Numbered from the stretch's first letter, positions 15,840 through 59,357 are shown. The stretch: DNA of 64,000 bases from an uncultured Planctomycetota bacterium (GCA_963845755.1 CAWJTV010000020.1:416001-480000); one strand, 5' to 3'. Made by a program: numbers and translations. Notes: a model not told the origin generated them from the sequence alone.

Positions 15840-15914
15840 CAGGGCGTGGGAAAGCCTGGTTAATCCGCGAGCTCGGGGAGCTCGAGATCGCCGGTTCAAA
15901 TCCGGCCGCCCTGA
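15840..15914 (+). tRNA. tRNA-Pro (GGG as folded; atypical C33)
   Basis: Acceptor cagggcg/cgccctg, anticodon arm cgagc-tcgggga-gctcg, T arm gccgg-ttcaaat-ccggc; no CCA. Confidence 0.85.
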
Positions 15915-16004
15915 CACTCTGACATACGTAGGATATTCGGCCTCGGGAGGGAGGTGTTGAGATGGATGCGCGAGTCAAACGCATACCCCGGAGAGGCGAT
16001 CGCC

Positions 16005-16076
16005 GGGGTCGTGATGTAAAGGCAGCATATCGGCCTTTTAAGCCGGGAAGTGGGGGTTCGAGTCCCTCCGGCCCCA
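16005..16076 (+). tRNA. tRNA-Lys (TTT)
   Basis: Acceptor ggggtcg/cggcccc, anticodon arm tcggc-cttttaa-gccgg, T loop ttcgagt; no CCA. Confidence 0.9.
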
Positions 16077-16077
16077 A

Positions 16078-16149
16078 TGGCGCCTAGCTCAGCGGCAGAG
16101 CACTCCCCTTATAAGGGAGCGACGAGGGGTTCGAGTCCCCCGGCGCCGA
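16078..16149 (+). tRNA. tRNA-Ile (TAT)
   Basis: Acceptor tggcgcc/ggcgccg, D arm gctc-agcggca-gagc, anticodon arm ctccc-cttataa-gggag, T loop ttcgagt. Confidence 0.88.
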
Positions 16150-16172
16150 CCGTCGAGGCCATCGCATGAGAG

Positions 16173-16243
16173 CGGCCCGTAGCTCAAGGGCAGAGCATCC
16201 GGCCGATAACCGGAAGACGAAGGTTCGACTCCTTCCGGGCCGA
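16173..16243 (+). tRNA. tRNA-Ile (GAT; atypical C33)
   Basis: Acceptor cggcccg/cgggccg, anticodon arm tccgg-ccgataa-ccgga, T arm gaagg-ttcgact-ccttc. Confidence 0.88.
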
Positions 16244-16315: not shown

Positions 16316-16744
16316 TCATGGCGGATCGGCGGATCCACTCCCGCTCCACGTTTCCGCGGGTAACCTGCGAGCGAGCAGGAAAACCTGGACCATAGTACCA
16401 CTCGTAAACGCCTGCACCACAGTGCCGGTCGTCGTCTCAACTTCCGCGGTGGCCTCGCGCACCTCCACACCCGTGATTCGCCGGATTTCCTTCCGCAGTG
16501 GCTCGGAAGTTGATGTGAATAACTGACGATGAAACTCCTGCACTCGAGCGGCACCTTCCGGCGTCCTGGCCAGGTCCTTCTCCGCCGGCGACAAAGACCC
16601 GTGGAGCGTGACGACCAACGTGTCCTCACTCACGACCACCGTCGCCGATGCGGGCAAGTGGCCAGTTCGTCGCAGCTCGAAGGCGATGGCTGCCTCGGCG
16701 ATCTGCTGCGCCAGGGTCGAATCGGGCTTGAGCATCGAGATCAC
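16316..16744 (-). CDS. DUF2294 / MpsC-family protein
   Basis: LAQQIAEAAIAFELRRTGHLP...DTLVVTLHGSLSPAEKDLA...IRRITGVEV parallels the protein at 22206..22586. Confidence 0.8.
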   Translation of the reverse strand: MISMLKPDSTLAQQIAEAAIAFELRRTGHLPASATVVVSEDTLVVTLHGSLSPAEKDLARTPEGAARVQEFHRQLFTSTSEPLRKEIRRITGVEVREATAEVETTTGTVVQAFTSGTMVQVFLLARRLPAETWSGSGSADPP

Positions 16745-16779
16745 CCCTATCGCTTACGGCCGTCCTGCACCACCGCTAG

Positions 16780-16888
16780 AAAAAAAGCCGACGTGGTGGA
16801 ACACCCAGGGGTATTCGACCATGTCGGCTTACTCGGCAACGGGCCCCCCGGTTCAGCCGGGTTACCCTTCATCTAGTCGTCCGACGAC
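16780..16888 (-). promoter_or_regulatory. conserved structured leader RNA with terminator, copy 1
   Basis: Minus strand GUCGUCGGACGACUAGAUGAAGGGUAACCCGG...CCGGGGGGCCC...AAGCCGACAUGG...CCACGUCGGCUUUUUUU; ends ~35 nt before the DUF2294 start; homologous to 18471..18578 and 23634..23741. Confidence 0.8.
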
Positions 16889-17108
16889 ATTGATTCAAGT
16901 TCCTGAGAACCGACTGCCAGTCGGCCTCGGCTCGATTCGTCACGCCAATTGTGCACTGACCAAAATGGAAAAGGCAAGTGAAATATCCTTCGCTTTCTTG
17001 TATGTTGGTCTTCGGCTAGTCCGAGTATCGGCGACGCGACCTCGGACGCCGGAAGGAGACGATCTTCTACGGCGGCCACGCGATCCGGAAGTGGACGGCG
17101 AAGTCGGC

Positions 17109-17168
17109 ACGAGAAAGCACGGAGAGATCGAGGCCGCCATCAGCGAAGGGATCACCGGCTTCGAACAG
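17109..17168 (+). pseudogene. DUF2294 N-terminal remnant
   Basis: TRKHGEIEAAISEGITGFEQ vs MKTQGEIEAAICEGINRFEQ of the intact gene at 22206; ACG at the start position; similarity then ends. Confidence 0.7.
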
Positions 17169-17268
17169 GTGATCCAGTCCCTCATCGACCTTATCCGGAC
17201 CGCACAGGCGGGAACTGGGTAAGCTGGTCTCGCCGTCTCAACGCCAAATTCCATTGCGGGGTTAGCCC

Positions 17269-17727
17269 TCATCTGGCTATAACGTTCGATGCTTCTATGA
17301 TCATCCATCTGTTGGGGATCGGCCCATCCTTCGATTCGCACGAGGTGCTCTCGAACTGCCCGGCCAAGGCCCCGGGGTCTCTGTCCGATCCAGGATCTTC
17401 CGACACCCGGCAGGCGGCCAGATCATCCGCAGCCGGCAACGTATTCCTGTACCCGAGCACGGCCTCGAGTTGGTCCTGGAGCCTCAAACTGTGTGTGTGG
17501 AGCAACGTCAGCGACTTCCTTAATCTCTCATTCTCATCCTTCAACTCCTGGAATTCTTCACTAATCGCGGAATCCTTCCCGTCCTGCACGGCGGCCACCT
17601 GTTCGACCATCGGTATCATCTCGGCACCATGGGATGTCACGGATCTTCGATAGGCCTGTCGAAGGGCTCGCTTGGCCTCAAAGAATCGCCGAAGAGCCGA
17701 CCGCAATTCGTGTGGGTCTACATTCAC
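17269..17727 (-). CDS. hypothetical coiled-coil protein
   Basis: AAGGAG upstream of GTG; heptad-like EEFQELKDENERLRKSL...LRLQDQLEAVL. Confidence 0.5.
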   Translation of the reverse strand: MNVDPHELRSALRRFFEAKRALRQAYRRSVTSHGAEMIPMVEQVAAVQDGKDSAISEEFQELKDENERLRKSLTLLHTHSLRLQDQLEAVLGYRNTLPAADDLAACRVSEDPGSDRDPGALAGQFESTSCESKDGPIPNRWMIIEASNVIAR

Positions 17728-17877
17728 CTTGCATTCTCCTTATGGTCCGCTCCGGTGGGGAAATCGCCCGGAGCAGCGCCTTCTCGAATCCGTCCCGGCC
17801 GCCTCGACGAGAAGGGACGTCGCAGGGATGCGGCATCGCGCCCGCCTCATGTCTGGAAGATCGATTCCGAAGGGTAG

Positions 17878-18168
17878 TTACTGTCCTTCCGGACCGTCCA
17901 CCAAGCCACCGATCCTCAGGAAGTCCCGGGCCTCGGGCACCATCACCATCACCACGCCGTCCTGGTCCGTCAGCACCTCGAGGATGAACCAATGCTGGCA
18001 CCCAGCGCAGATGCCAAGCAGCCTGTCGGGAGACCCGGGATCGGGTTGGTGCAGATCGAGGCCGATATCACAAGACAGACACGTGACTCGAGAGAAGTCA
18101 TCGTGCGAGGTCGAGAAGCGAGTTACCGTCAGCGAGACCAATGCCGTGACCGGAGTTTTGGGACTCAT
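17878..18168 (-). CDS. small zinc-ribbon-like protein
   Basis: CLSC...[19 protein letters not shown] (2x CxxC); ATGA-coupled to the upstream HTH gene. Confidence 0.7.
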
Positions 18169-18449
18169 GGTGGTTGCCCCTCGATCTGGAACCGAAGCAG
18201 CTGCGGTTCGCCGTAATCGGCCAGACCTCTTTCACCTTCGCCGGTCAGGAGCCAATAGGGTTCGGCCCCCGTGGCATCGATGAAGCGGAGGAGTACCAAC
18301 CCGGGGATTGTCACTCCGGACTCGTAATGAGCCCAGGTCCGGGCGGGGATACCCAGCGCCTCAGCCATGAGAGGCGCGCCATTTTCGCCATAGATCTCGA
18401 GGCGGACTTCGCGCAGACGGCGGGCCAACGCGTCGCTTTCTGGCTTCAT
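18165..18449 (-). CDS. XRE-family helix-turn-helix protein
   Basis: [11 protein letters not shown]...[18 protein letters not shown]...WLLTGEG. Confidence 0.8.
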
Positions 18450-18470
18450 CGCCGCTACCCTTTCTCGAAG

Positions 18471-18578
18471 AAAAAGGCCGACGTGGAGGAATACCTTCGG
18501 GTACTCCTCCACGTCGGCCTACTCGTCAACGAGCCCTCCGGCCGTGCCGGGTTGCCCCTCATCTAGTCTTCCGACGAC
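18471..18578 (-). promoter_or_regulatory. conserved structured leader RNA with terminator, copy 2
   Basis: Minus strand GUCGUCGGAAGACUAGAUGAGGGGCAACCCGGC-ACG-GCCGGAGGGCUCGUUGACGAGUAGGCCGACGUGGAGGAGUACC-CGAA-GGUAUUCCUCCACGUCGGCCUUUUU; ~20 nt before the XRE start. Confidence 0.8.
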
Positions 18579-18836
18579 ATCTGATAATGCTTCATCGGAG
18601 CCGAGTACGATTGCATACCAACTCCGCTACACCCCTAATCATGACGATCAGGATGGAGGAAAACAAGTCACTGCCACTCGAACTGCCCGTATCATGAATC
18701 CCGGATCTCCCGAGGACACACGCTCCGAGACCGGCAAACCCACCGAGGAGACCGAGAGCGGCATCCCCAGAGTGTGACCGCGCGGCGGATCCGCCGAGAT
18801 TTCGAAGAATGGTTTGGAAATTCCTTGAATTCCGCG

Positions 18837-19557
18837 TCACAGCCGAACGTCCTGGGCGAAGCTCGCGACCCTGGCGAGCGGCTGGAGGGGCACATCGTGA
18901 GCCGCCGGCACGAACGGCACGACGACCTTGAGGATGAACCGGTAGTGGGCCAGGCTGCCCGCCAGCACGAACAGGTGGAACAGCTCATGGGTCCCGAAGA
19001 TCCCCGGGTAGAGGACGGGCCAGTGGAGTAGGTTGAGCACGGCCCCCAGGCTGTAGGAGAGGCCGCCGCCCACGATCGGAAGCAACTGCGCGGTGCGACA
19101 CAACCTGCGCGATCTCGGAATAGCAGACGAGGGAGCCCCACCCCATCCCCAGGTACAGCCCGGTTGACCACGCGAGCGGGAAGTGCCGGCCGGTCGCGAT
19201 CAAGGCCGTGGCCATGGCCGCCACGCCCCAGACGATCGCCAGCGTCCACTGCCGCCATCGGCCCCGCATCAAGCACCAGGCCAGCGGAGTATAGCTCCCG
19301 GCGATCAGCGCAAAGATCCCGACGCCGTCCAGGCGGGCGAACGTGGCGAGCTGGGCGGACGGCAGCCGAACGCCGTGAAAGAGGCTACTGGCCAAATAGC
19401 AGAAGGCCAGGGTCAGGCCATAGATGAGGAGGCTCAGCCGCTTCGGGGGCTGGCCTGCGCTTCGCCGCCAGAGGAAATAGGTACCGGGCAGTGCCAGGAG
19501 CAGGCCGGCACAATGACTCCAGGTGCTGACGGGCTCGCGAAAGTCGAGGAAGTTCAT
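18837..19557 (-). CDS. hemolysin III / PAQR (TrhA-like) membrane protein (frameshift ~19085)
   Basis: REPVSTWSH, ASSLFHG, LDGVGIFALIAGSYTP, YLGMGW; GGGLSYSLGA and HELFHLFVLAGS in ORF 18837..19103. Confidence 0.88.
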
Positions 19558-19610
19558 CCGAAGACATCCGATAGGGCCTGATGTCGGGATAGGAGGTGGC
19601 TGCCAAGGGC

Positions 19611-20666
19611 TCAGACTTCGCACTCGTGGACCCAGGTGAAGCGGGTGGGCGGGCGTTTGGCGAGTGTTTCCGCGAGCTCGCCGGCGATGCGTTGATACTT
19701 CTCGGCCTGCTGGCAAAGGTAGTCCTGGGCCCTGGCCGCCTTCCCCGAGAGGGACCGATGCGCCACGCCCCAGACCTCGACGAGGTGTTCGATGATCTGC
19801 GCATAGGACAGGATAGTGTAGGCCCCGATCCGTTGCGAGACGATCGCGAAATGGTCGAACAGGTCGGGATCCTCGCCGTCGAACATGAAGCGTCCGGGCA
19901 TGGAGATGATGCCCTTGATCATCGACCGGAAGGCGATGATTCCCGTCTCCGGGTCTCGTTCCATGGCCTGGCCGACGACTCTCGTGTAGAACGTCTCGTG
20001 GCGCGCCTCGTCGCCGGCGATCCTCCGGCAGATCCTCGCGAGATTCTCATCCCCCTGCTGGGCGGCGAGCTTGCCCAGATTCCCGTGGGCGATCCGGGTC
20101 GCTCGCTCCTGGAAGGCGGCATAGATCAGCGCCGAGCAGTCGTCGCCCTTATTGCGCGAGTCGAATCCATTTCTGATGAGATGATGGATCGTCCGCTCGA
20201 TGGCTTGCATGTCCACCCGGCCCGTGAGCCGGAGGTAAGCGTTGAGCAGGTCGCCATGTCGGTTCTCCTCCGCCGTCCATCCCCGCAACCACTGAGCCCA
20301 GGGATCGTCGTCGATCCCGGACTGGTCTCGGGCGATGCGATTCAGCGAGATGGCGTAACTTGGCAGGGCCTCTTCCGTGACCATGTTCCCCACCAGCACG
20401 ACCAGCAGTTCGTGCGAGACCTGTCGCGCGGAAGTCCGGAACCGCGTCACTTGCTCGGCCCAATCTTCGGAGGTCAGATCGGGGAGGAAGTCGGTCGGCT
20501 GCCAGGCCTGATCCACGGGTGTGAGCAGCGCGAGGTTTTCCGCGACGAACCCTTGCAAATCCTCCATCAGTTCCATGTCGTGAGGCTCCTGGTCGATAGG
20601 GATGGTGCCGCTGATTGGCTCAATCCGATGCTCCTGTGAATCTTCCCGATCCTCGGCGGCACACAC
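19611..20666 (-). CDS. acyl-ACP desaturase (soluble di-iron); start uncertain
   Basis: WQPTDFLP, TEEALPSY, WTAEENRHGDLL, FQERAT, DEARHE. Confidence 0.92.
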   Translation of the reverse strand: MCAAEDREDSQEHRIEPISGTIPIDQEPHDMELMEDLQGFVAENLALLTPVDQAWQPTDFLPDLTSEDWAEQVTRFRTSARQVSHELLVVLVGNMVTEEALPSYAISLNRIARDQSGIDDDPWAQWLRGWTAEENRHGDLLNAYLRLTGRVDMQAIERTIHHLIRNGFDSRNKGDDCSALIYAAFQERATRIAHGNLGKLAAQQGDENLARICRRIAGDEARHETFYTRVVGQAMERDPETGIIAFRSMIKGIISMPGRFMFDGEDPDLFDHFAIVSQRIGAYTILSYAQIIEHLVEVWGVAHRSLSGKAARAQDYLCQQAEKYQRIAGELAETLAKRPPTRFTWVHECEV

Positions 20667-21555
20667 CGATCAGTTCGGTTTCGCTTTCCGGTGAAGGGCC
20701 CCGCGACCGCGGCATGGGGATCGTCCTGGGACGCTTCACACCGTGGGCCAGCCCGACCACGGCCAGGAGGCGGATCGCCCAGTAGGTCGCGTCGAGCTCC
20801 CACCAACGCAGGCCGTGCCGCGCCGAGGTCTGGGAGGCATGGTGGTTGTTATGCCAGCCCTCGCCGAAGGTGAGCAGGGCCACCCACCAGAGGTTCGTCG
20901 AGGTGTCGCGGGTCGGATAGCTGCGGTAGCCCCAGACGTGGGTGGCCGAGTTGACCAGCCAGGTCGAGTGCAACACCAGGCACGACCGGACGAAGCCGCC
21001 CCAGATCAGCCAGGGCAGGCCGCCCGCGGCGTAAAGGGCCGCGAACATCAGGAGCGGTAAGGTGAAGTGGAACCGGTCGAGCACGCGGTGGACCGGGTCT
21101 CGAGCGAGGTCGGGTGCCCACTTCGTGTAGTATTCCGGGACGTGGGTCCGGGCGACTTCGGGCGTGATCCACCAGAGCATATGAGCCCAGGCGAGGCCGT
21201 GGCCGGGGCTGTGGACGTCCTGCTCCTCGTCGGCGTGGGCGTGGTGCTTGCGGTGGTCGGCGACCCAGCCGATCGCCCCTCCCTCCGAGGCACAGCAGCC
21301 GATGGCCGTGAAGAGGTATTCGAGCCACCGAGGCCGAAGGGCGAAGCTGCGGTGCGTGAGGAGCCGGTGGTAGGTTAAGCAGATGCCGAGGCCGGCGGTG
21401 AGCCAGTAGAGGGACAGGCAGACGGCCGCAGCAGACCAGGTAAATAAGGCGGGCAAGAACGCCGCCAGGGCACCGACGTGCAGTCCGGCGATCCAGAGTA
21501 CGGCGGGCCACGCGATGCCAGACAACGCAGGCCGCGGCCGGGGGATCTCTCTCAT
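20620..21555 (-). CDS. membrane-bound delta-9-type fatty acid desaturase
   Basis: Three His boxes HRLLTH, HRKHH, GEGWHNNHH. Confidence 0.92.
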   Translation of the reverse strand: MREIPRPRPALSGIAWPAVLWIAGLHVGALAAFLPALFTWSAAAVCLSLYWLTAGLGICLTYHRLLTHRSFALRPRWLEYLFTAIGCCASEGGAIGWVADHRKHHAHADEEQDVHSPGHGLAWAHMLWWITPEVARTHVPEYYTKWAPDLARDPVHRVLDRFHFTLPLLMFAALYAAGGLPWLIWGGFVRSCLVLHSTWLVNSATHVWGYRSYPTRDTSTNLWWVALLTFGEGWHNNHHASQTSARHGLRWWELDATYWAIRLLAVVGLAHGVKRPRTIPMPRSRGPSPESETELIGVCRRGSGRFTGASD

Positions 21556-21907
21556 GCAGGACTCACGATCGGGAAAAAGCCGAAGTTGATCGCTCCGCGC
21601 CACCGGGCTCGCCGGCGAGACCTCCTCACACGGAGGGGGCGACGTCGGGTGATGGGTTCGCCGACCCCGTCGCCACGACGAGGCGAGGGTGCCGGGATCG
21701 CGCTCTCGCGGGCCTCCGGTCCTCCCACAGCGTGCGCCATCAAAAGGTCGCGACAATTAGAGTATAGAAAGAATCTAATCCAATTCAATAGATCGACAAA
21801 TTTTTTTTGGATAAATCCTTGACATACTGGATTTAAAGCTTCTTGTCTGTTATAGTTCTTGATAAACAGAGGATTTGCACACCGGTGCTGGCTTTTCCTG
21901 GATTGTG

Positions 21908-22129
21908 ATGGTGGGGATGATGGCGAAGCCGGAGCGGAGGAGGCCGGGACGTCCCCGGCGTGAGGCGTCGAGGCGCGAGACGGTCGTCGCGATCAAGGGC
22001 TCGACGGAATGGAAATCGTGGCTCGACGAGTTCTCGACCCATTGCCGGCTGGGGCTCTCCGACACGATCGAGCAATCGCTGGTCTACTACGCCGAGGAGC
22101 GTGGTTACCGGGAGCCGCCCAAGCGTTGA
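21908..22129 (+). CDS. small putative DNA-binding (ribbon-helix-helix-like) protein
   Basis: GRPRR motif, strand VVAIKGS, two helices EWKSWLDEFS / LSDTIEQSLVYYA; start uncertain. Confidence 0.55.
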   Translation: MVGMMAKPERRRPGRPRREASRRETVVAIKGSTEWKSWLDEFSTHCRLGLSDTIEQSLVYYAEERGYREPPKR

Positions 22130-22205
22130 GGGCCTGCTCGACCCCCGTGAGGAGCTCTCTCGTGGCAGCCGGGTAATGCGGGAGTGGTAGGCGAGCGAGG
22201 GCACC

Positions 22206-22586
22206 ATGAAAACGCAGGGGGAAATCGAAGCCGCCATCTGCGAAGGAATCAATCGCTTCGAGCAGGAATACATGGGCCGGGGACCCAAGGACATCCGGGC
22301 GCACTTGATCGGTGATCTCCTCGTCGTCCGACTCCAGGGCGTCCTGACCGCCGCTGAACAGCATCTGGTCAAATCGCTCCCGGCCGAGAAGGGACGAGAT
22401 TTGCTCAAGCAAGTCCGGACCCATCTGCTCGAAACCGCTCGGCCGTTCCTGGAAGCGATGGTCCGCGAGATCACCGGCATAGCGGTGCTCAGCCTGCACC
22501 ATGACATCAGCACCACCACCGGCGAAGAAATCGTGTTGTTCACCCTGTCCGAGCCGGTGCCCGTCCGCGAGACGAGGAAGAAGTAA
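22206..22586 (+). CDS. DUF2294 / MpsC-family protein
   Basis: MKTQGEIEAAI...YMGRGPKDI...DLLVVRLQGVLTAAE...LHHDISTTTGEE. Confidence 0.9.
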   Translation: MKTQGEIEAAICEGINRFEQEYMGRGPKDIRAHLIGDLLVVRLQGVLTAAEQHLVKSLPAEKGRDLLKQVRTHLLETARPFLEAMVREITGIAVLSLHHDISTTTGEEIVLFTLSEPVPVRETRKK

Positions 22587-22851
22587 CTCGCTTGGATCGA
22601 GGATCCCGCGATCGTCGAGATTCATGCCGATTACGCCCACCGGAACCCACGGTGGAGGACCACACATCCTCTCGGAAGGTCACGCCCGCGGATGCTCAGC
22701 CTCCAGATCGCCACGCCGGCCGCATTCTCCCCCGTGCAGAAAGCCGTACCGACCGACGCCAATTCGTCCAGCGTCTCCAGCACTTCGATCGTGCCGCCGA
22801 CGTGGCGGCGCAGCAGCGCTCCGTAGGAGGGCCCGGCGCTCGTAAAGTATA

Positions 22852-23070
22852 TCAAGGGCTCACCTTCGCATCGCCCGAAAAATCGTTGATTTCCCGCTCC
22901 GCCTCGTCTCTCGCGTAGCCATACTTTCGTTGAAGGAGGCTGGAGAGTTGTTCGCGCTTGCCGCTGAATGTCGTCAGGTCGGCGTCTGTCAGCTTGCCCC
23001 ACTTCGCTTTGACCTTCTCCGTGAAATGCTTCCAGTCGCCCGCGATCTCGTACCAGATCATGATTGACAT
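22852..23070 (-). CDS. CsbD/YjbJ-family stress protein
   Basis: IAGDWKHFTEKVKAKWGKLTDADL...GKREQL...LQRKYGYARDEAEREI. Confidence 0.9.
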   Translation of the reverse strand: MSIMIWYEIAGDWKHFTEKVKAKWGKLTDADLTTFSGKREQLSSLLQRKYGYARDEAEREINDFSGDAKVSP

Positions 23071-23282
23071 CCTAACGCGGCACAGCCGCAACCCGAAGGA
23101 TCGGGGGTTCTCCCCTGTGCGCGGGACTCCCGACCCCGCCCCGGACCGACTGCCGTTCTCCCAGGTTATCACAACGTACTCCAGGTTGTGCGCACGACGA
23201 GGATGGAAAGGAATCTCGAGGACTTGCGACACGAGAACGAGTCCAGCAAGCCCCGAGCGACCCGGTGCCTCGACGGACGCCT

Positions 23283-23516
23283 TCACTTGCTCGATTGCGC
23301 GTGCGCATCCGCCGAGTGCTGATGAGCTTGCTCGCTGTGCCGATTCGCGGACTCGGAGTGCTTCTTGGCCGACTCGTGCTCTCCCACTTCGTGGTGGTGG
23401 GCCGCCTCGAGGTGATGATGAGCGGCGGCCGTGTGGTGGGTCGCGGCCCTGTGGTGGTACTCGGCTGGTGTGCGTTTCCTGGTCGTCGCCGAGGCGTTCT
23501 TGGTGGTTGTGGCCAT
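23283..23516 (-). CDS. 77-aa histidine-rich protein
   Basis: GAGGAG RBS; AEYHHRAATHHTAAAHHHLEAAHHHEVGEH; 16 His. Confidence 0.8.
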   Translation of the reverse strand: MATTTKNASATTRKRTPAEYHHRAATHHTAAAHHHLEAAHHHEVGEHESAKKHSESANRHSEQAHQHSADAHAQSSK

Positions 23517-23633
23517 GGTTCGATTCTCCTCTCGAAGGATTGAAACCGCGCTCGTCCGCGTTCCGTTCATGACTAACCGGCCAGCCCGCAGAATCGCCGT
23601 TTCTCGGCGAAGGCCGAACAGTAAGCCTCAAGC

Positions 23634-23741
23634 AAAAAAAAAGACGTGGAGGAATACCCTGAGGCATTCGACCACGCCGGCTTACTCGTTGACGAGCCCC
23701 CCGGTCCGGCCGGATTGCTCTTCATCTAGTCGTCCGACGAC
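23634..23741 (-). promoter_or_regulatory. conserved structured leader RNA with terminator, copy 3
   Basis: Minus strand GUCGUCGGACGACUAGAUGAAGAGCAAUCCGG...CCGGGGGGCUCGUCAACGAGUAAGCCGGCGUGG...CCACGUC then U run; upstream of the His-rich gene; base of terminator stem eroded. Confidence 0.78.
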
Positions 23742-23958
23742 ACCTACTTTGATTCTCAACCGCGCCGACCGGTAATACCGAATCGGCACCGAGTTCGCCT
23801 CTCATTATGACGCGCGGTGCTGAGGTAGCAAGGAAATTCTTTTAATTCTTGTTTATGAAGGTCCCTCGATAGCCAAGTAGCGGGCGATTGGCGCGCGGGC
23901 ACCATCCGCGACAGGCCGGATCCGAGCCATCCGAGGAAAGCCGCACCTTGGAGGCCCG

Positions 23959-24132
23959 GTGAGAACGTTCAGAGAGATCGAAGCCGCGATCTCTGATGGG
24001 ATCGTTCCGATCGATCACTGCGAGCAGGAATGGACAGGGGGACTCAGAGATACTGACAGGCACTCCCGTGGTGATCTCCTCGTGGGCCGTACGCGGCCCG
24101 ATGATAGCCGGGAAAAACTCCGAAACGCATGA
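23959..24132 (+). pseudogene. decayed DUF2294 remnant
   Basis: GGAGG RBS + GTG; RTFREIEAAISDGI...EQEWTGGLRDTDRHSRGDLLVGR aligns with KTQGEIEAAICEGI...EQEYMGRGPKDIRAHLIGDLLVVR; stops after 57 codons. Confidence 0.7.
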
Positions 24133-34491: not shown

Positions 34492-34563
34492 GGGCGGCTG
34501 GTCTAACGGGATGACACTTGGTTTGCACCCAGGAGATCGGGGTTCGATTCCCCGGCCGGTCCA
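34492..34563 (+). tRNA. tRNA-Ala (TGC)
   Basis: Anticodon arm cttgg-tttgcac-ccagg, T arm cgggg-ttcgatt-ccccg, G3:U70-type pair; one extra G in the 3' acceptor strand. Confidence 0.8.
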
Positions 34564-34645
34564 CTCCCTCGCGGGTTCGAGTCATGGTCGGGGTATCAGA
34601 ATTCCTTCGGAATCGTGAGTCCTCGACCGGAAAGCGGAAAGCGCG

Positions 34646-34718
34646 GCCTCGGTGGTGAAATGGACGATCATCCCTCGCTTCTAACGAGGTGTTCCAGGTT
34701 CGAGTCCTGGCCGAGGTA
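34646..34718 (+). tRNA. tRNA-Arg (TCT)
   Basis: Acceptor gcctcgg/ccgaggt, anticodon arm cctcg-cttctaa-cgagg, T arm ccagg-ttcgagt-cctgg. Confidence 0.9.
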
Positions 34719-34742
34719 TGACTGTTGAACGAAGTGGAATGA

Positions 34743-34815
34743 GGACCCGTCGTCTAGCGGCGAAGACGTCCCTTTGACGTGGGGAAGACCGGTGGTTCGA
34801 GTCCACCCGGGACCA
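34743..34815 (+). tRNA. tRNA-Val (GAC)
   Basis: Anticodon arm tccct-ttgacgt-gggga, T arm ggtgg-ttcgagt-ccacc; A.A mismatch at acceptor pair 3. Confidence 0.82.
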
Positions 34816-34944
34816 CTGGTTGGCGAGACCCACTTGATATGGAAGCGCTACACGACTCGGGCGCGAGCGAGCGATGAGCCTTGCAGCTTCGACTTCCGCC
34901 CCTCGCGCTTCGACCCGGGCGAGTCCCGGGCAGGCCTTGATGAT

Positions 34945-35017
34945 GGTGATCGTGGTGTATCGGTCGCATCCGAGACTGTGAATCTCGACGTGCCGGGTTC
35001 AACTCCGGCCGAATACC
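34945..35017 (+). tRNA. tRNA-His (GTG), slightly degenerate
   Basis: G-1 present; anticodon arm cgaga-ctgtgaa-tctcg; acceptor mismatch and irregular T stem. Confidence 0.72.
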
Positions 35018-35035
35018 CTCGCTCAATCGAAAGAC

Positions 35036-35105
35036 AGGGGTGTGCTCCTGGGAGAGCAGCGAGCCTCCAAAACTCGTGCACAAGGTTCGAATCCTTGCAC
35101 TCCTG
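35036..35105 (+). tRNA. tRNA-Trp (CCA)
   Basis: Acceptor aggggtg/cactcct, loop ctccaaa, T arm caagg-ttcgaat-ccttg; compact D arm. Confidence 0.85.
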
Positions 35106-42907: not shown

Positions 42908-43174
42908 TCAGGTGGGATCGGGGCGACTCCGGCGGGTTTCGCGGCGGACCGGTTGGTTGAGGCGCTCGATCTGTCGAGCGTCCTGGGGATCCAGCCGGCT
43001 CGCCTGGCGATTCTCGCGTTGGATCGCTTCGTACACCTCTTGTCGATGTACGGAGATCTCGATCGGGGCCGCGATCCCCAATCGCACTTTATCACCCCGG
43101 ATATCCACCACGGTAATGACGATATCATCACCGATGATGATACTTTCGTCGCGGTGTCGGGATAGGACCAGCAT
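42908..43174 (-). CDS. csrA: carbon storage regulator CsrA
   Basis: MLVLSR...IIIGDDIVITVVDIRGDKVRLGIAAP...VHRQEVY. Confidence 0.95.
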   Translation of the reverse strand: MLVLSRHRDESIIIGDDIVITVVDIRGDKVRLGIAAPIEISVHRQEVYEAIQRENRQASRLDPQDARQIERLNQPVRRETRRSRPDPT

Positions 43175-57635: not shown

Positions 57636-59357
57636 ATGAGCGTGAAACTCTCGCGAAAAGCCTACGCCAAGAAGTACGGCCCAACGGTCGGCGACCGCAT
57701 CCGGCTGGCCGACACCGAGCTGATCATCGAGATCGAGCACGACTACACCGACTACGGCGAGGAATCGATCTTCGGCGGCGGAAAGTCGATCCGTGACGGG
57801 CAGGATCAATGCCCGATCGAAGATGTGATGGGTCCCGAACACTGCGACCTGGTCATCACCAACGCCGTGATCATCGACCACTGGGGGATTGTCAAGGGTG
57901 ACATCGGCATTCGAGGCGGCCGCATCGTGGCGGTCGGCAAGTCTGGGAACCCGCTGACGCAATCCGGTGTTGACCCGAGGCTGGTCATCGGGCCGGGCAC
58001 CGAAATCATTGCGGGCGAGGGCAAGATCTGTACGGCGGGTGGCATCGACACCCACATCCACTTCATCTGCCCGCAGCAGATCGAGGTCGCCATCGCCAGC
58101 GGCATTACCACACTGATCGGCGGTGGAACCGGATCGGCGACGGGGACCTGGGCAACAACCTGCACGCCCGGCCCGTGGAACATCATGCGAATGCTCCAGG
58201 CATTCGAAGGGCTGGCGATCAACGTGGGGATCCTCGGCAAGGGCAACGGCAGCGTGCCGAGGCCCCTGTGCAAGCAAATCGAGGCCGGAGCCTGCGGGCT
58301 GAAGCTCCACGAGGACTGGGGCACCACACCCGCCGTGATCGACACCAGCTTGTCAGTGGCCGACGAATACGACATTCAGATCGCCATCCACACCGACACG
58401 CTCAACGAGTCGGGTTTCATCGACGATTCGATCGCGGCGATCAAGGGGCGGGCAATTCACAGCTTCCACACCGAGGGTGCCGGCGGCGGCCATGCCCCGG
58501 ACATCATCAAGATCGCCGGGCTGCCCAACGTGCTCCCCTCGAGCACGAACCCCACTCGCCCGTTCACCGTCAACACGATCGACGAGCATCTCGACATGCT
58601 GATGGTCTGCCATCACCTGTCGCGGGACATTCCCGAGGACGTGGCGTTCGCCGAGAGCCGCATCCGGGCCGAGACCATCGGCGCCGAGGACGTCTTCCAC
58701 GACCGCGGCATCATCAGCATGATGAGCTCGGACTCACAAGCGATGGGCCGTATCGGCGAGGCGATCGTCCGGTGCTGGCAGACGGCCCACAAGATGAAAG
58801 TGCAGCTCGGCCCCCTGGCCGGCGACAGCTCGCGCAACGACAACGAGCGCGTCAAGCGGTACGTCGCCAAATACACGATCAACCCGGCGGTCACGCATGG
58901 CATCGCCCAGCACGTCGGGAGTATCGAGGGCGGCAAACTGGCCGACCTGGTGCTGTACGAGCCGGCGAACTTCGGTGTGAAACCCTTCCTGATCCTCAAG
59001 GGAGGCCTCATCGTCGCCGCCCAGATGGGCGACCCCAACGCCAGCATCGCCACGCCGCAGCCCGTGTACATGCGACCTCAGTTCGCCGCCTACGGCCGGG
59101 CGCTGTCCAAGTCCTGTCTGAGCTTCGTCTCGAAGGTCTCGCTGGACAAGGGGATCGTCGATCGCTACGGCCTCGAGCGCGAGGTCGTGGCCGTCGAGAA
59201 CTGCCGTGACATCGGCAAGAAGGACATGCATCGTAACGAGGCAACTCCTGAGATCCGCGTGGACCCGGACACCTACCAGGTCTGGGTCAACGGCGAGAAG
59301 GTCAGCAGCGAACCGCTCGAGGAGCTGCCGATGTCTCAACTTTACTTCGTATTCTGA
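57636..59357 (+). CDS. ureC: urease alpha subunit
   Basis: [40 protein letters not shown]. Confidence 0.98.

Follow-up and report, generated by a model that had tools for sequence, protein, structure and literature searches.

Three copies of an apparent leader RNA of about 108 nt lie on the minus strand of a 64,000-nt stretch of DNA from an uncultured Planctomycetota bacterium (GCA_963845755.1 CAWJTV010000020.1:416001-480000; hereafter the window), each ahead of a different gene. What kind of RNA is this, and what would it do for the genes behind it? An initial annotation, made from the DNA alone, described a cis-regulatory switch that it could not match to a known riboswitch class. Here, we report a computational analysis of its structure, distribution and gene context. 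We find that the leader is a real, widespread and apparently undescribed cis-regulatory RNA of the attenuator or riboswitch-like kind, and that DUF2294 and CsrA-like proteins are linked to it unusually closely. Each copy is best read as a transcription-attenuation switch that forms the 5′ leader of a gene or operon of stress type. That the leader is a cis-acting terminator/antiterminator we regard as highly probable; the fuller statement, in which this switch is worked by a protein effector from the linked gene module, falls a little short of an even chance and is offered tentatively.

Structure of the leader

The three window copies occur exactly where they had been annotated, and four further copies lie on another contig.

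16780-16888, minus strand: leader copy 1
18471-18578, minus strand: leader copy 2
23634-23741, minus strand: leader copy 3
Contig C23 at 93.6, 99.6, 105.8 and 107.5 kb, minus strand: four further copies (BLAST with copy 1)

Copies 2 and 3 share 81–83% identity with copy 1 across roughly 110 nt, and a covariance model of core and terminator built from 43 copies (R1) scores the window copies at 113–131 bits, far beyond chance. All the shared features first listed are present in the sequence: GUCGUCGGAmGAC, UAGAUGA, a GGGU/GCCC-type stem, an AA/GG loop, a CCGG hairpin, CGAGUA, a long hairpin with a U tract, and complementarity between GUCGG and CCGAC. The count of three is correct for the window, the genome total being seven: a BLAST search of the 14.27-Mb assembly with copy 1 as query returns seven full-length copies, three on the window's contig (C20) and four on C23. 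R1 recovers the identical seven (113–132 bits), along with seven weak antisense echoes of the palindromic terminator (16–39 bits).

The conserved core is one long irregular hairpin of 65 nt, which we denote the rod. Bit scores below are those of an aptamer-only model (R2).

16822..16886, minus strand: copy 1 rod (80.7 bits; covariation counts)
18512..18576, minus strand: copy 2 rod (78.8 bits), closing helix CGUCGG (18571-18576) with CCGACG (18512-18517)
23675..23739, minus strand: copy 3 rod (85 bits), closing helix CGUCGG/CCGGCG with one G-U pair

Between its closing strands, 5′ (C)GUCGG and 3′ CCGAC(A), the copy 1 rod comprises, in order, the loop A-Y-G, the stem ACU/AGU (stem a), stem b, GGGU/GCCC (stem c), an AA/GG tandem purine loop, CCCGG/CCGGG (stem d), the apical loop and, on the returning strand, the loop AAG. 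To count pairs we aligned 101 model matches, 99 of them distinct (alignment A6, to which column numbers refer). The closing helix, CGUCGG (columns 7–12) with CCGACG (80–85), encloses the rod and is paired in 92.6% of cells; a 3 × 3 internal loop, A-Y-G opposite A-A-G, separates it from stem a (16–18 with 72–74), which is 96.6% paired and includes one pair with five double changes and eight mismatches. Stems b (22–24 with 66–68) and c (26–29 with 61–64) together form standard pairs in 93.1% of cells, with both-side changes at seven of seven pairs, and stem d (32–36 with 50–55), below the variable apical loop, does so in 98.2%, with both-side changes at five of five. By eye, the 2 × 2 purine loop between stems c and d also changes in step (AA/GG, AG/AG, GG/AA). 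The two helices of the terminator reach 97.8% and 92.3% standard pairs, with both-side changes at 7 of 10 and 8 of 8 pairs. For the structure as a whole, 0 of 500 shuffles attain the observed values, and slid controls fall to 29–52% paired.

This alignment alters two details of the initial annotation. The UAGAUGA segment, described as an invariant linker, is constant only in close copies; in more distant ones its sequence changes and it pairs with the 3′ strand. Because the rod pairing co-varies there (CUGA/UCAG, UCGA/UCGA, GCAA/UUGC), the segment makes up the 5′ side of stems a and b. The 5′ GUCG...CGAC hairpin first proposed is not supported as the main fold: its positions are paired in 75.3% of cells (13–41 unpaired sequences per pair), and it appears in 0 of 99 minimum-free-energy (MFE) folds. 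Its bases are better suited to the 5′ strand of the closing helix and the conserved internal loop. The most conserved bases of the leader flank the closing helix on both sides, G11 (98 of 99), G12 (98), A13 (96), G15 (97), A16 (99) and C17 (99) on the 5′ strand and G73 (99), U74 (97), A77 (98), C80 (99), C81 (99) and G82 (98) on the 3′ strand, and the loop base Y14 is variable (C in 53, U in 32, A in 13). The same two strands stand out among 55 representatives sharing less than 85% identity. GAC opposite AGUA may also fit a bulged-G (loop E/sarcin–ricin) motif. Two other candidates were set aside: a small CUCG-loop-CGAG hairpin 3′ of the rod, which U-to-C changes break while suiting the rod stem (by eye), and a DNA operator at the palindrome GTCGTC-G-GACGAC, the 5′ half of which is not conserved in distant copies.

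The rod runs into an intrinsic terminator.

16780..16830, minus strand: copy 1 terminator, long hairpin GCCGACAUGG...CCACGUCGGC then U7 (fold energy, covariation)
18471..18520, minus strand: copy 2 terminator, perfect 20-bp stem and U tract (terminator scan, sequence)
23634..23681, minus strand: copy 3 terminator, hairpin and U9, stem base shorter than in the other copies (sequence, fold)

The 5′ arm of the copy 1 terminator overlaps the 3′ strand of the closing helix. Because that strand is the base of the terminator 5′ arm, closing helix and terminator are mutually exclusive. In transcripts cut just before the terminator 3′ arm, the closing helix is in the MFE fold of 98 of the 99 distinct copies; full leaders fold with the terminator in 96 of 99 cases and never with the closing helix. 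For copies 1, 2 and 3, respectively, the terminator state has energies of −53.1, −64.4 and −46.7 kcal/mol, compared with −42.6, −50.7 and −43.3 kcal/mol when the closing helix is enforced, so that the terminator state is 3–14 kcal/mol more stable than the closed rod. The MFE fold of the cut transcript is exactly the closed rod in copy 2 (−29.2 kcal/mol) and is likewise the closed rod in copy 3 (−30.2 kcal/mol). The leader thus has the two parts of an attenuator: a G+C-rich hairpin with a U tract 5′ of a same-strand open reading frame (ORF), and an alternative helix that excludes the terminator, with thin compensatory support (three single sequences). Folds and covariation agree with the initial proposal of a cis-regulatory leader in which a 5′ GUCGG box competes for the CCGAC of the terminator arm.

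The conserved unit extends beyond the ~108 nt first annotated. When the seven copies of this genome are aligned with more flank, conservation resumes some 65–100 nt upstream, where a block, TTCACTTGC, is followed after 16–18 nt by CAYAAT. The resulting pattern, TTGnnn-N16-18-CAnnAT, resembles a sigma-70-type promoter, with a predicted transcription start. A hairpin, P0, sits between this promoter-like element and the element first annotated; its sequence varies and its pairing is retained among copies.

16948..16977, minus strand: copy 1 promoter-like element, TTGCCT (16972-16977), 18-nt spacer, CACAAT (16948-16953) (alignment of all seven copies)
18638..18666, minus strand: copy 2 promoter-like element, TTGTTT, 17-nt spacer, CATGAT (alignment, sequence)
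23804..23831, minus strand: copy 3 promoter-like element, TTGCTA, 16-nt spacer, CATAAT (9 of 12 in a promoter scan; alignment)
16907..16933, minus strand: copy 1 P0 hairpin, GAGCCGA...UCGGUUC (pairing kept, sequence different among copies)
18596..18626, minus strand: copy 2 P0 hairpin, CGGAG...CUCCG (alignment)
23764..23787, minus strand: copy 3 P0 hairpin, GCCGA...UCGGC (sequence, alignment)

The copy 1 promoter-like element is preceded by a conserved TTCAC and scores under the 9-of-12 rule of the simple scanner. P0 is dispensable, since in some distant relatives it is missing and the promoter abuts the core. In all seven copies the −35 region (for example 16972-16985, minus strand) forms part of a conserved block, (A/T)TTCACTTGC, with another invariant sequence, CATAC, ~20 nt upstream; a factor may bind here, or the divergent promoter of a type-A DUF2294 gene (described below) may lie here.

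The leader matches no family in Rfam 15. At the gathering threshold, the 4227 models find only tRNAs and a 5_ureB_sRNA in the window, all away from the leaders, and at E values up to 10 the region 16600–24000 yields three chance matches only (MIR848 on a terminator and two snoRNAs). The Na+ (DUF1646) and Li+ (nhaA-I) riboswitch motifs are present in Rfam, and neither matches in 16600–24000 at E up to 10. Literature searches, with subscription journals outside their coverage, found no published description of the leader; they returned nothing on DUF2294 together with riboswitches, and nothing relevant on DUF2294 alone, on CsrA or small RNAs in Planctomycetes, or on Gemmata. The Rhodopirellula-1 motif was compared by eye and rejected: its Stockholm rows (AACAA..GAU..GAAC...GUUAUC..ACGUU; Weinberg 2010, PMC2864571) are unlike the leader, and the table of that paper gives the motif no Rfam accession. 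The 'YjbJ motif' is described as confined to Streptococcus (PMC11109978).

Distribution and gene context

How far does the leader extend, and which genes does it precede? The initial annotation had suggested building a covariance model, searching Planctomycetota and tabulating the downstream genes; doing so places the leader in 54 of 121 genomes of the order (27 of 53 genera), ahead of stress-type genes. BLAST with a 181-nt query had found it in 34 of the 101 family genomes sampled (20 of 53 genera). R1 reports ~580 matches in the order, a total that counts antisense echoes of the terminator; a single genome has as many as 30 scored matches, which often cluster within tens of kilobases. In wider samples, the element occurs in 18 genomes from six families among 151 genomes of the class; a phylum-wide sample, again of 151 genomes, has it in seven (one weak), with two more families from outside the class among them. 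The genome of a cultured type strain, Singulisphaera acidiphila DSM 18658, holds two copies, one strong (82 bits) and one weak (40 bits).

2480287-2480405 of NC_019892.1, plus strand: strong leader copy of S. acidiphila DSM 18658, ~1.85 kb upstream of a type-B DUF2294 gene

R2 was made to seek copies with other expression platforms. In the window's own genome and the phylum sample it found no copies beyond those of the full model; its single extra match (31 bits) lies over the 3′ end of an apparent ORF, lacks a terminator and was judged false.

In the window, the leaders precede the following genes.

16316..16744, minus strand: DUF2294/MpsC gene of type B after copy 1 (Pfam PF10057, E 4.8e-22)
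18165..18449, minus strand: small protein with weak helix-turn-helix similarity after copy 2 (Pfam HTH_19/HTH_31, E ~0.006, below curated cut-offs)
23283-23570, minus strand: His-rich 95-aa ORF after copy 3 (no Pfam match)
22855-23097, minus strand: region holding the CsbD-like domain (Pfam) of the gene after the His-rich ORF (the two genes span 22855..23570)

The DUF2294 gene and the His-rich ORF are as first annotated, whereas the XRE-type helix-turn-helix gene given for copy 2 is only weakly helix-turn-helix-like. At copy 1 the DUF2294 match begins ~42 nt past the model match. The ATG behind copy 2, at 18449, follows the U tract by ~21 nt, which leaves no room for a separate promoter. The four C23 copies precede a DUF2294 gene (with a CsrA gene behind it), a DUF3309 gene, a ferritin-like gene and an ORF without Pfam match, one each.

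The same position recurs elsewhere. Of 37 copies, 33 have a Pfam-matched gene starting on the same strand within ~450 nt, as do 44 of another 56 (77 of 93 in total; in the second set, 132 of 138 ORFs were screened, six duplicates of one locus being left out). The downstream families in these 93 copies are as follows.

DUF2294/MpsC: 34, including the most distant families
DUF3309, often with DUF1328: 11
CsbD: 6–7
Transglycosylase-associated (YmgE-like): 4
Histidine kinase or response regulator: 4
BON: 3
YflT: 2
SPFH/Band 7: 2
DUF2934: 2
Single cases: among them ferritin-like, fatty-acid desaturase, hibernation factor, ice-binding-like and DUF4142
No Pfam match: 16 copies

Going by the family names, this set appears to be of a general-stress type. 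Every full-length match is in sense before a gene; in antisense there are only weak matches, which echo the palindromic terminator. In 33 of 99 copies the neighbouring gene upstream is transcribed divergently, which indicates that the terminator is not there for an upstream gene.

These genes resemble a general-stress regulon rather than one for ion or bicarbonate transport. The suggestion that Na+, pH or CO2/bicarbonate is the signal had rested on the name MpsC, and it is not borne out: no gene of the MpsA or MpsB type is among the Pfam hits downstream of the 93 copies. According to the study of these genes in Staphylococcus aureus, deletion of mpsC has no phenotype and mpsC is dispensable for MpsAB function, and outside staphylococci mpsC is not co-located with mpsAB (PMC6689103).

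The closest association of the leader is with two kinds of DUF2294 gene and a CsrA-like gene. We scored module positions at the 99 copies with local hidden Markov models built from the sequences of this analysis. A divergent, high-scoring type-A DUF2294 gene lies 134–341 nt upstream (mostly 210–223) in 33 copies, a type-B DUF2294 gene starts at most 61 nt downstream (mostly 39–47) in 31, and a CsrA-like gene lies ~480 nt downstream in 17; the order type A, leader, type B, CsrA-like gene recurs across families. In the window, one type-A gene is intact and two are remnants.

22206..22586, plus strand: intact type-A DUF2294/MpsC gene in the window island (Pfam PF10057, E 2.6e-36)
17112..17168, plus strand: N-terminal type-A remnant 220 nt upstream of copy 1 (BLASTP against intact type A, 68% identity over 19 aa, E 2e-4)
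23959..24096, plus strand: N-terminal type-A remnant 214 nt upstream of copy 3 (BLASTP, 47% identity over 47 aa, E 3e-6)

Both remnants keep the spacing of intact modules elsewhere, and therefore copies 1 and 3 derive from duplications that took in the whole module, after which type A decayed. On C23, a second island at 93.5–108.3 kb holds four leaders, one of them in a full module (type-A DUF2294, leader, type-B DUF2294, CsrA-like gene) and 95% identical to window copy 1. The genome has six DUF2294 genes and 14 genes of the CsrA family, an unusually large number; one of the latter lies in the window (43019-43174, minus strand) and adjoins no leader.

Of the 121 genomes of the order, 49 combine the RNA with DUF2294 and 62 lack both. 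The 10 discordant genomes comprise five with the RNA only (three weak hits, two in fragmented assemblies) and five with DUF2294 only. A reciprocal test that started from the type-B protein avoids ascertainment through the RNA. Among the best 80 of 458 loci, the RNA lies in sense within 120 nt upstream in 65 of the 78 testable; the others are seven with the RNA farther upstream, six with none within 1.5 kb and two with short upstream DNA. Type-B loci found by protein come from Isosphaeraceae, Gemmataceae, Planctomycetaceae, Pirellulales, Thermoguttaceae, Phycisphaerae and Tepidisphaeraceae. Four of the 80 (L217, L228, L242, L262) are in metagenome-assembled genomes labelled Alcaligenaceae, Gammaproteobacteria (two) and Bacillota, and three of these four carry the leader; we suspect mis-binned planctomycete contigs, or else horizontal spread.

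Candidate mechanism and alternatives

How might such a leader act? In the mechanism we propose, the closed rod would form first during transcription. The emerging 3′ arm of the terminator would then displace the closing helix, and transcription would stop after ~110–170 nt. An effector bound at the near-invariant region by the closing helix (GGA-Y-GAC opposite AGUAAGCC) would hold the rod shut, and the polymerase would read through the locked rod into the gene, making the leader an ON switch. The behaviour suggested by the folds is kinetic, in that anything locking the rod would give read-through. With a protein effector, the result would be autoregulated, protein-dependent antitermination co-ordinating a general-stress regulon. 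We lean towards a protein because two small soluble proteins and a CsrA paralogue are linked to the leader deeply and at fixed positions, because its GGA is invariant, and because a rod with loops is typical of protein platforms such as RAT hairpins. The predicted candidate is a DUF2294/MpsC-type protein, possibly acting with the CsrA-like protein of the operon, a small ligand being less favoured. A bolder version, in which DUF2294 ('MpsC') is a hitherto unrecognized family of RNA-binding antitermination factors that read the rod with a CsrA-like partner, RNA and proteins together being the master switch for general stress in Planctomycetota, we think rather unlikely; to our knowledge, no general-stress regulator has been described for this phylum.

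Several points weigh against this mechanism. The promoter, the start of transcription and its termination are all predicted. Compensatory changes in the closing helix number only three, each in a single sequence (by eye, U-A for C-G in L093 and A-U for G-C in L107), because both strands are nearly invariant, and the case for its reality is carried mainly by energetics and conservation. Linkage to DUF2294 would also be expected if this protein were simply the main regulated effector, and the co-occurrence counts overstate independence, the genomes being related. A CsrA-type protein on the GGA strand would block the closing helix and favour termination, the opposite polarity. The DUF2294 fold points to no function and has no convincing structural relative: VIA-align gives a best Z of 6.3 to unrelated folds, within noise, as are the KH-like and V4R/TRAPP-like rows at Z 4.2–5.3. 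The protein matches no PDB sequence at E up to 1, and its AlphaFold2 model (pLDDT 80.6) has no Foldseek match at E up to 0.001.

A true riboswitch would share most of this architecture. In that case the closed rod would be an aptamer, the internal loop of which binds a small molecule or ion raised under stress (a second messenger, an alarmone or a monovalent cation) and so stabilizes the closing helix for read-through. Known transcriptional ON riboswitches (guanidine-I/ykkC, ZTP, cyclic di-GMP-I, Na+ DUF1646, Li+ nhaA-I) likewise occur in multiple copies in 5′ leaders and combine a closing helix shared with the terminator, covarying stems and near-invariant loop bases; up to 30 scored matches per genome, a housekeeping-like promoter that may leave regulation to the RNA and a functionally mixed regulon, as cyclic-dinucleotide riboswitches have, all suit this explanation. 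Unlike them, however, the leader matches no Rfam family, is a single rod with no junction or detected pseudoknot, and has no ligand-related gene context: nothing downstream of the 93 copies is a linked transporter or enzyme that points to a ligand. Its strongest and deepest linkage is instead to small soluble proteins at fixed positions (two DUF2294 genes and a CsrA-like gene), which is more typical of protein–RNA autoregulation, and R2, which found no real copy apart from those of the full model in the samples, gives no sign of the modular re-use that many riboswitch classes show. We judge a riboswitch doubtful, if the most likely of the alternatives. Protein-dependent antitermination has its own precedents. 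The RAT hairpins of BglG, SacY and LicT are also imperfect looped hairpins that overlap the terminator 5′ arm, where protein-held closure would stop termination, and their regulator may adjoin its target. The rod is about twice as long, and its candidate, DUF2294, lacks a recognized RNA-binding fold; no CAT/PRD-type antiterminator is among the Pfam hits downstream of the 93 copies, upstream ORFs having been screened only for DUF2294 and CsrA. Autoregulatory leaders such as those of ribosomal proteins, PyrR and TRAP share the main association with one small protein family immediately downstream, whereas this leader also precedes many unrelated stress genes, which points to a regulon rather than a single feedback loop.

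The terminated leader could instead be the product, a trans-acting small RNA of ~110–170 nt that, for example, jointly titrates CsrA-like proteins through its invariant GGA, with read-through secondary. A promoter-like site of its own, a very strong terminator, numerous copies, a GGA kept in 96–98 of 99 copies, the 14 CsrA-family genes of the genome and the CsrA-like gene in the core operon are as this would have it, and the invariant GGA recalls CsrA/RsmA sites and the CsrB/RsmZ sponges. Known sponges carry many GGA motifs, however, and a CsrA target presents GGA in a short hairpin loop, usually with a second GGA site. The leader has one conserved GGA, not reliably in a hairpin loop, and no repeated GGA hairpins: the hairpin that would present it is the poorly paired 5′ one (75.3% of cells, 0 of 99 folds), and the conservation profile contains no second conserved GGA. 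Nearly every copy has a gene on its own strand directly behind it, in some cases too close to fit another promoter, and a pure small RNA would have no need of the conserved overlap between closing helix and terminator. Such a role can coexist with regulation in cis; as the primary function we find it improbable. A direct physical sensor, in which the kinetics of closing helix versus terminator respond to temperature or ionic strength with no specific effector, has a smaller chance still. It would suit a closing helix that forms first and must be displaced, and some downstream genes (desaturase, ice-binding-like, BON, CsbD, hibernation factor) suggest cold, osmotic or desiccation stress; some 15 near-invariant bases by the internal loop, kept across classes, exceed what a thermometer needs, and the fixed DUF2294 linkage would be left without explanation. 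That the copies are a non-functional dispersed repeat (of the repetitive extragenic palindrome or miniature inverted-repeat transposable element type), or a conserved terminator carried along by gene duplication, is scarcely credible. Copies are multiple and clustered in islands, and copies 1 and 3 carry remnants of a duplicated neighbour gene. Yet the helices covary through compensatory changes, all full-length matches keep a single, sense orientation to the gene they precede, and the element is kept across families and classes while the flanks and the 5′ hairpin diverge; the repeat interpretation, named in the initial annotation as what would undo its proposal, thus falls away.

If real, the leader represents a large new family of structured regulatory RNAs that defines a stress regulon in a phylum with almost unexplored gene regulation, and DUF2294, a widespread family named only after a neighbouring operon that it does not serve, gains a concrete functional context. 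The leader would be either a new orphan riboswitch class or a new protein–RNA antitermination system. Short templates suffice for in vitro work, and there is at least one cultured carrier, S. acidiphila DSM 18658.

Other features of the window

Between copies 2 and 3, genes for a haemolysin-III-type membrane protein, an acyl-ACP-type desaturase (FA_desaturase_2, E 1e-121) and a membrane fatty-acid desaturase (18988-21756, minus strand) share the stress island; these membrane-adaptation genes have no leader of their own. Rfam also locates two tRNA clusters and one further RNA.

15840-16243, plus strand: cluster of four tRNAs
34492-35105, plus strand: cluster of six tRNAs
57787-58089, minus strand: 5_ureB_sRNA match (97 bits, E 3e-24)

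Members of the 5_ureB_sRNA family lie opposite the 5′ end of ureB, on the antisense strand, and a urease gene is therefore probable at 57787-58089. The first tRNA cluster sits directly 3′ of the copy 1 DUF2294 gene, the spot held by the CsrA-like gene in related modules.

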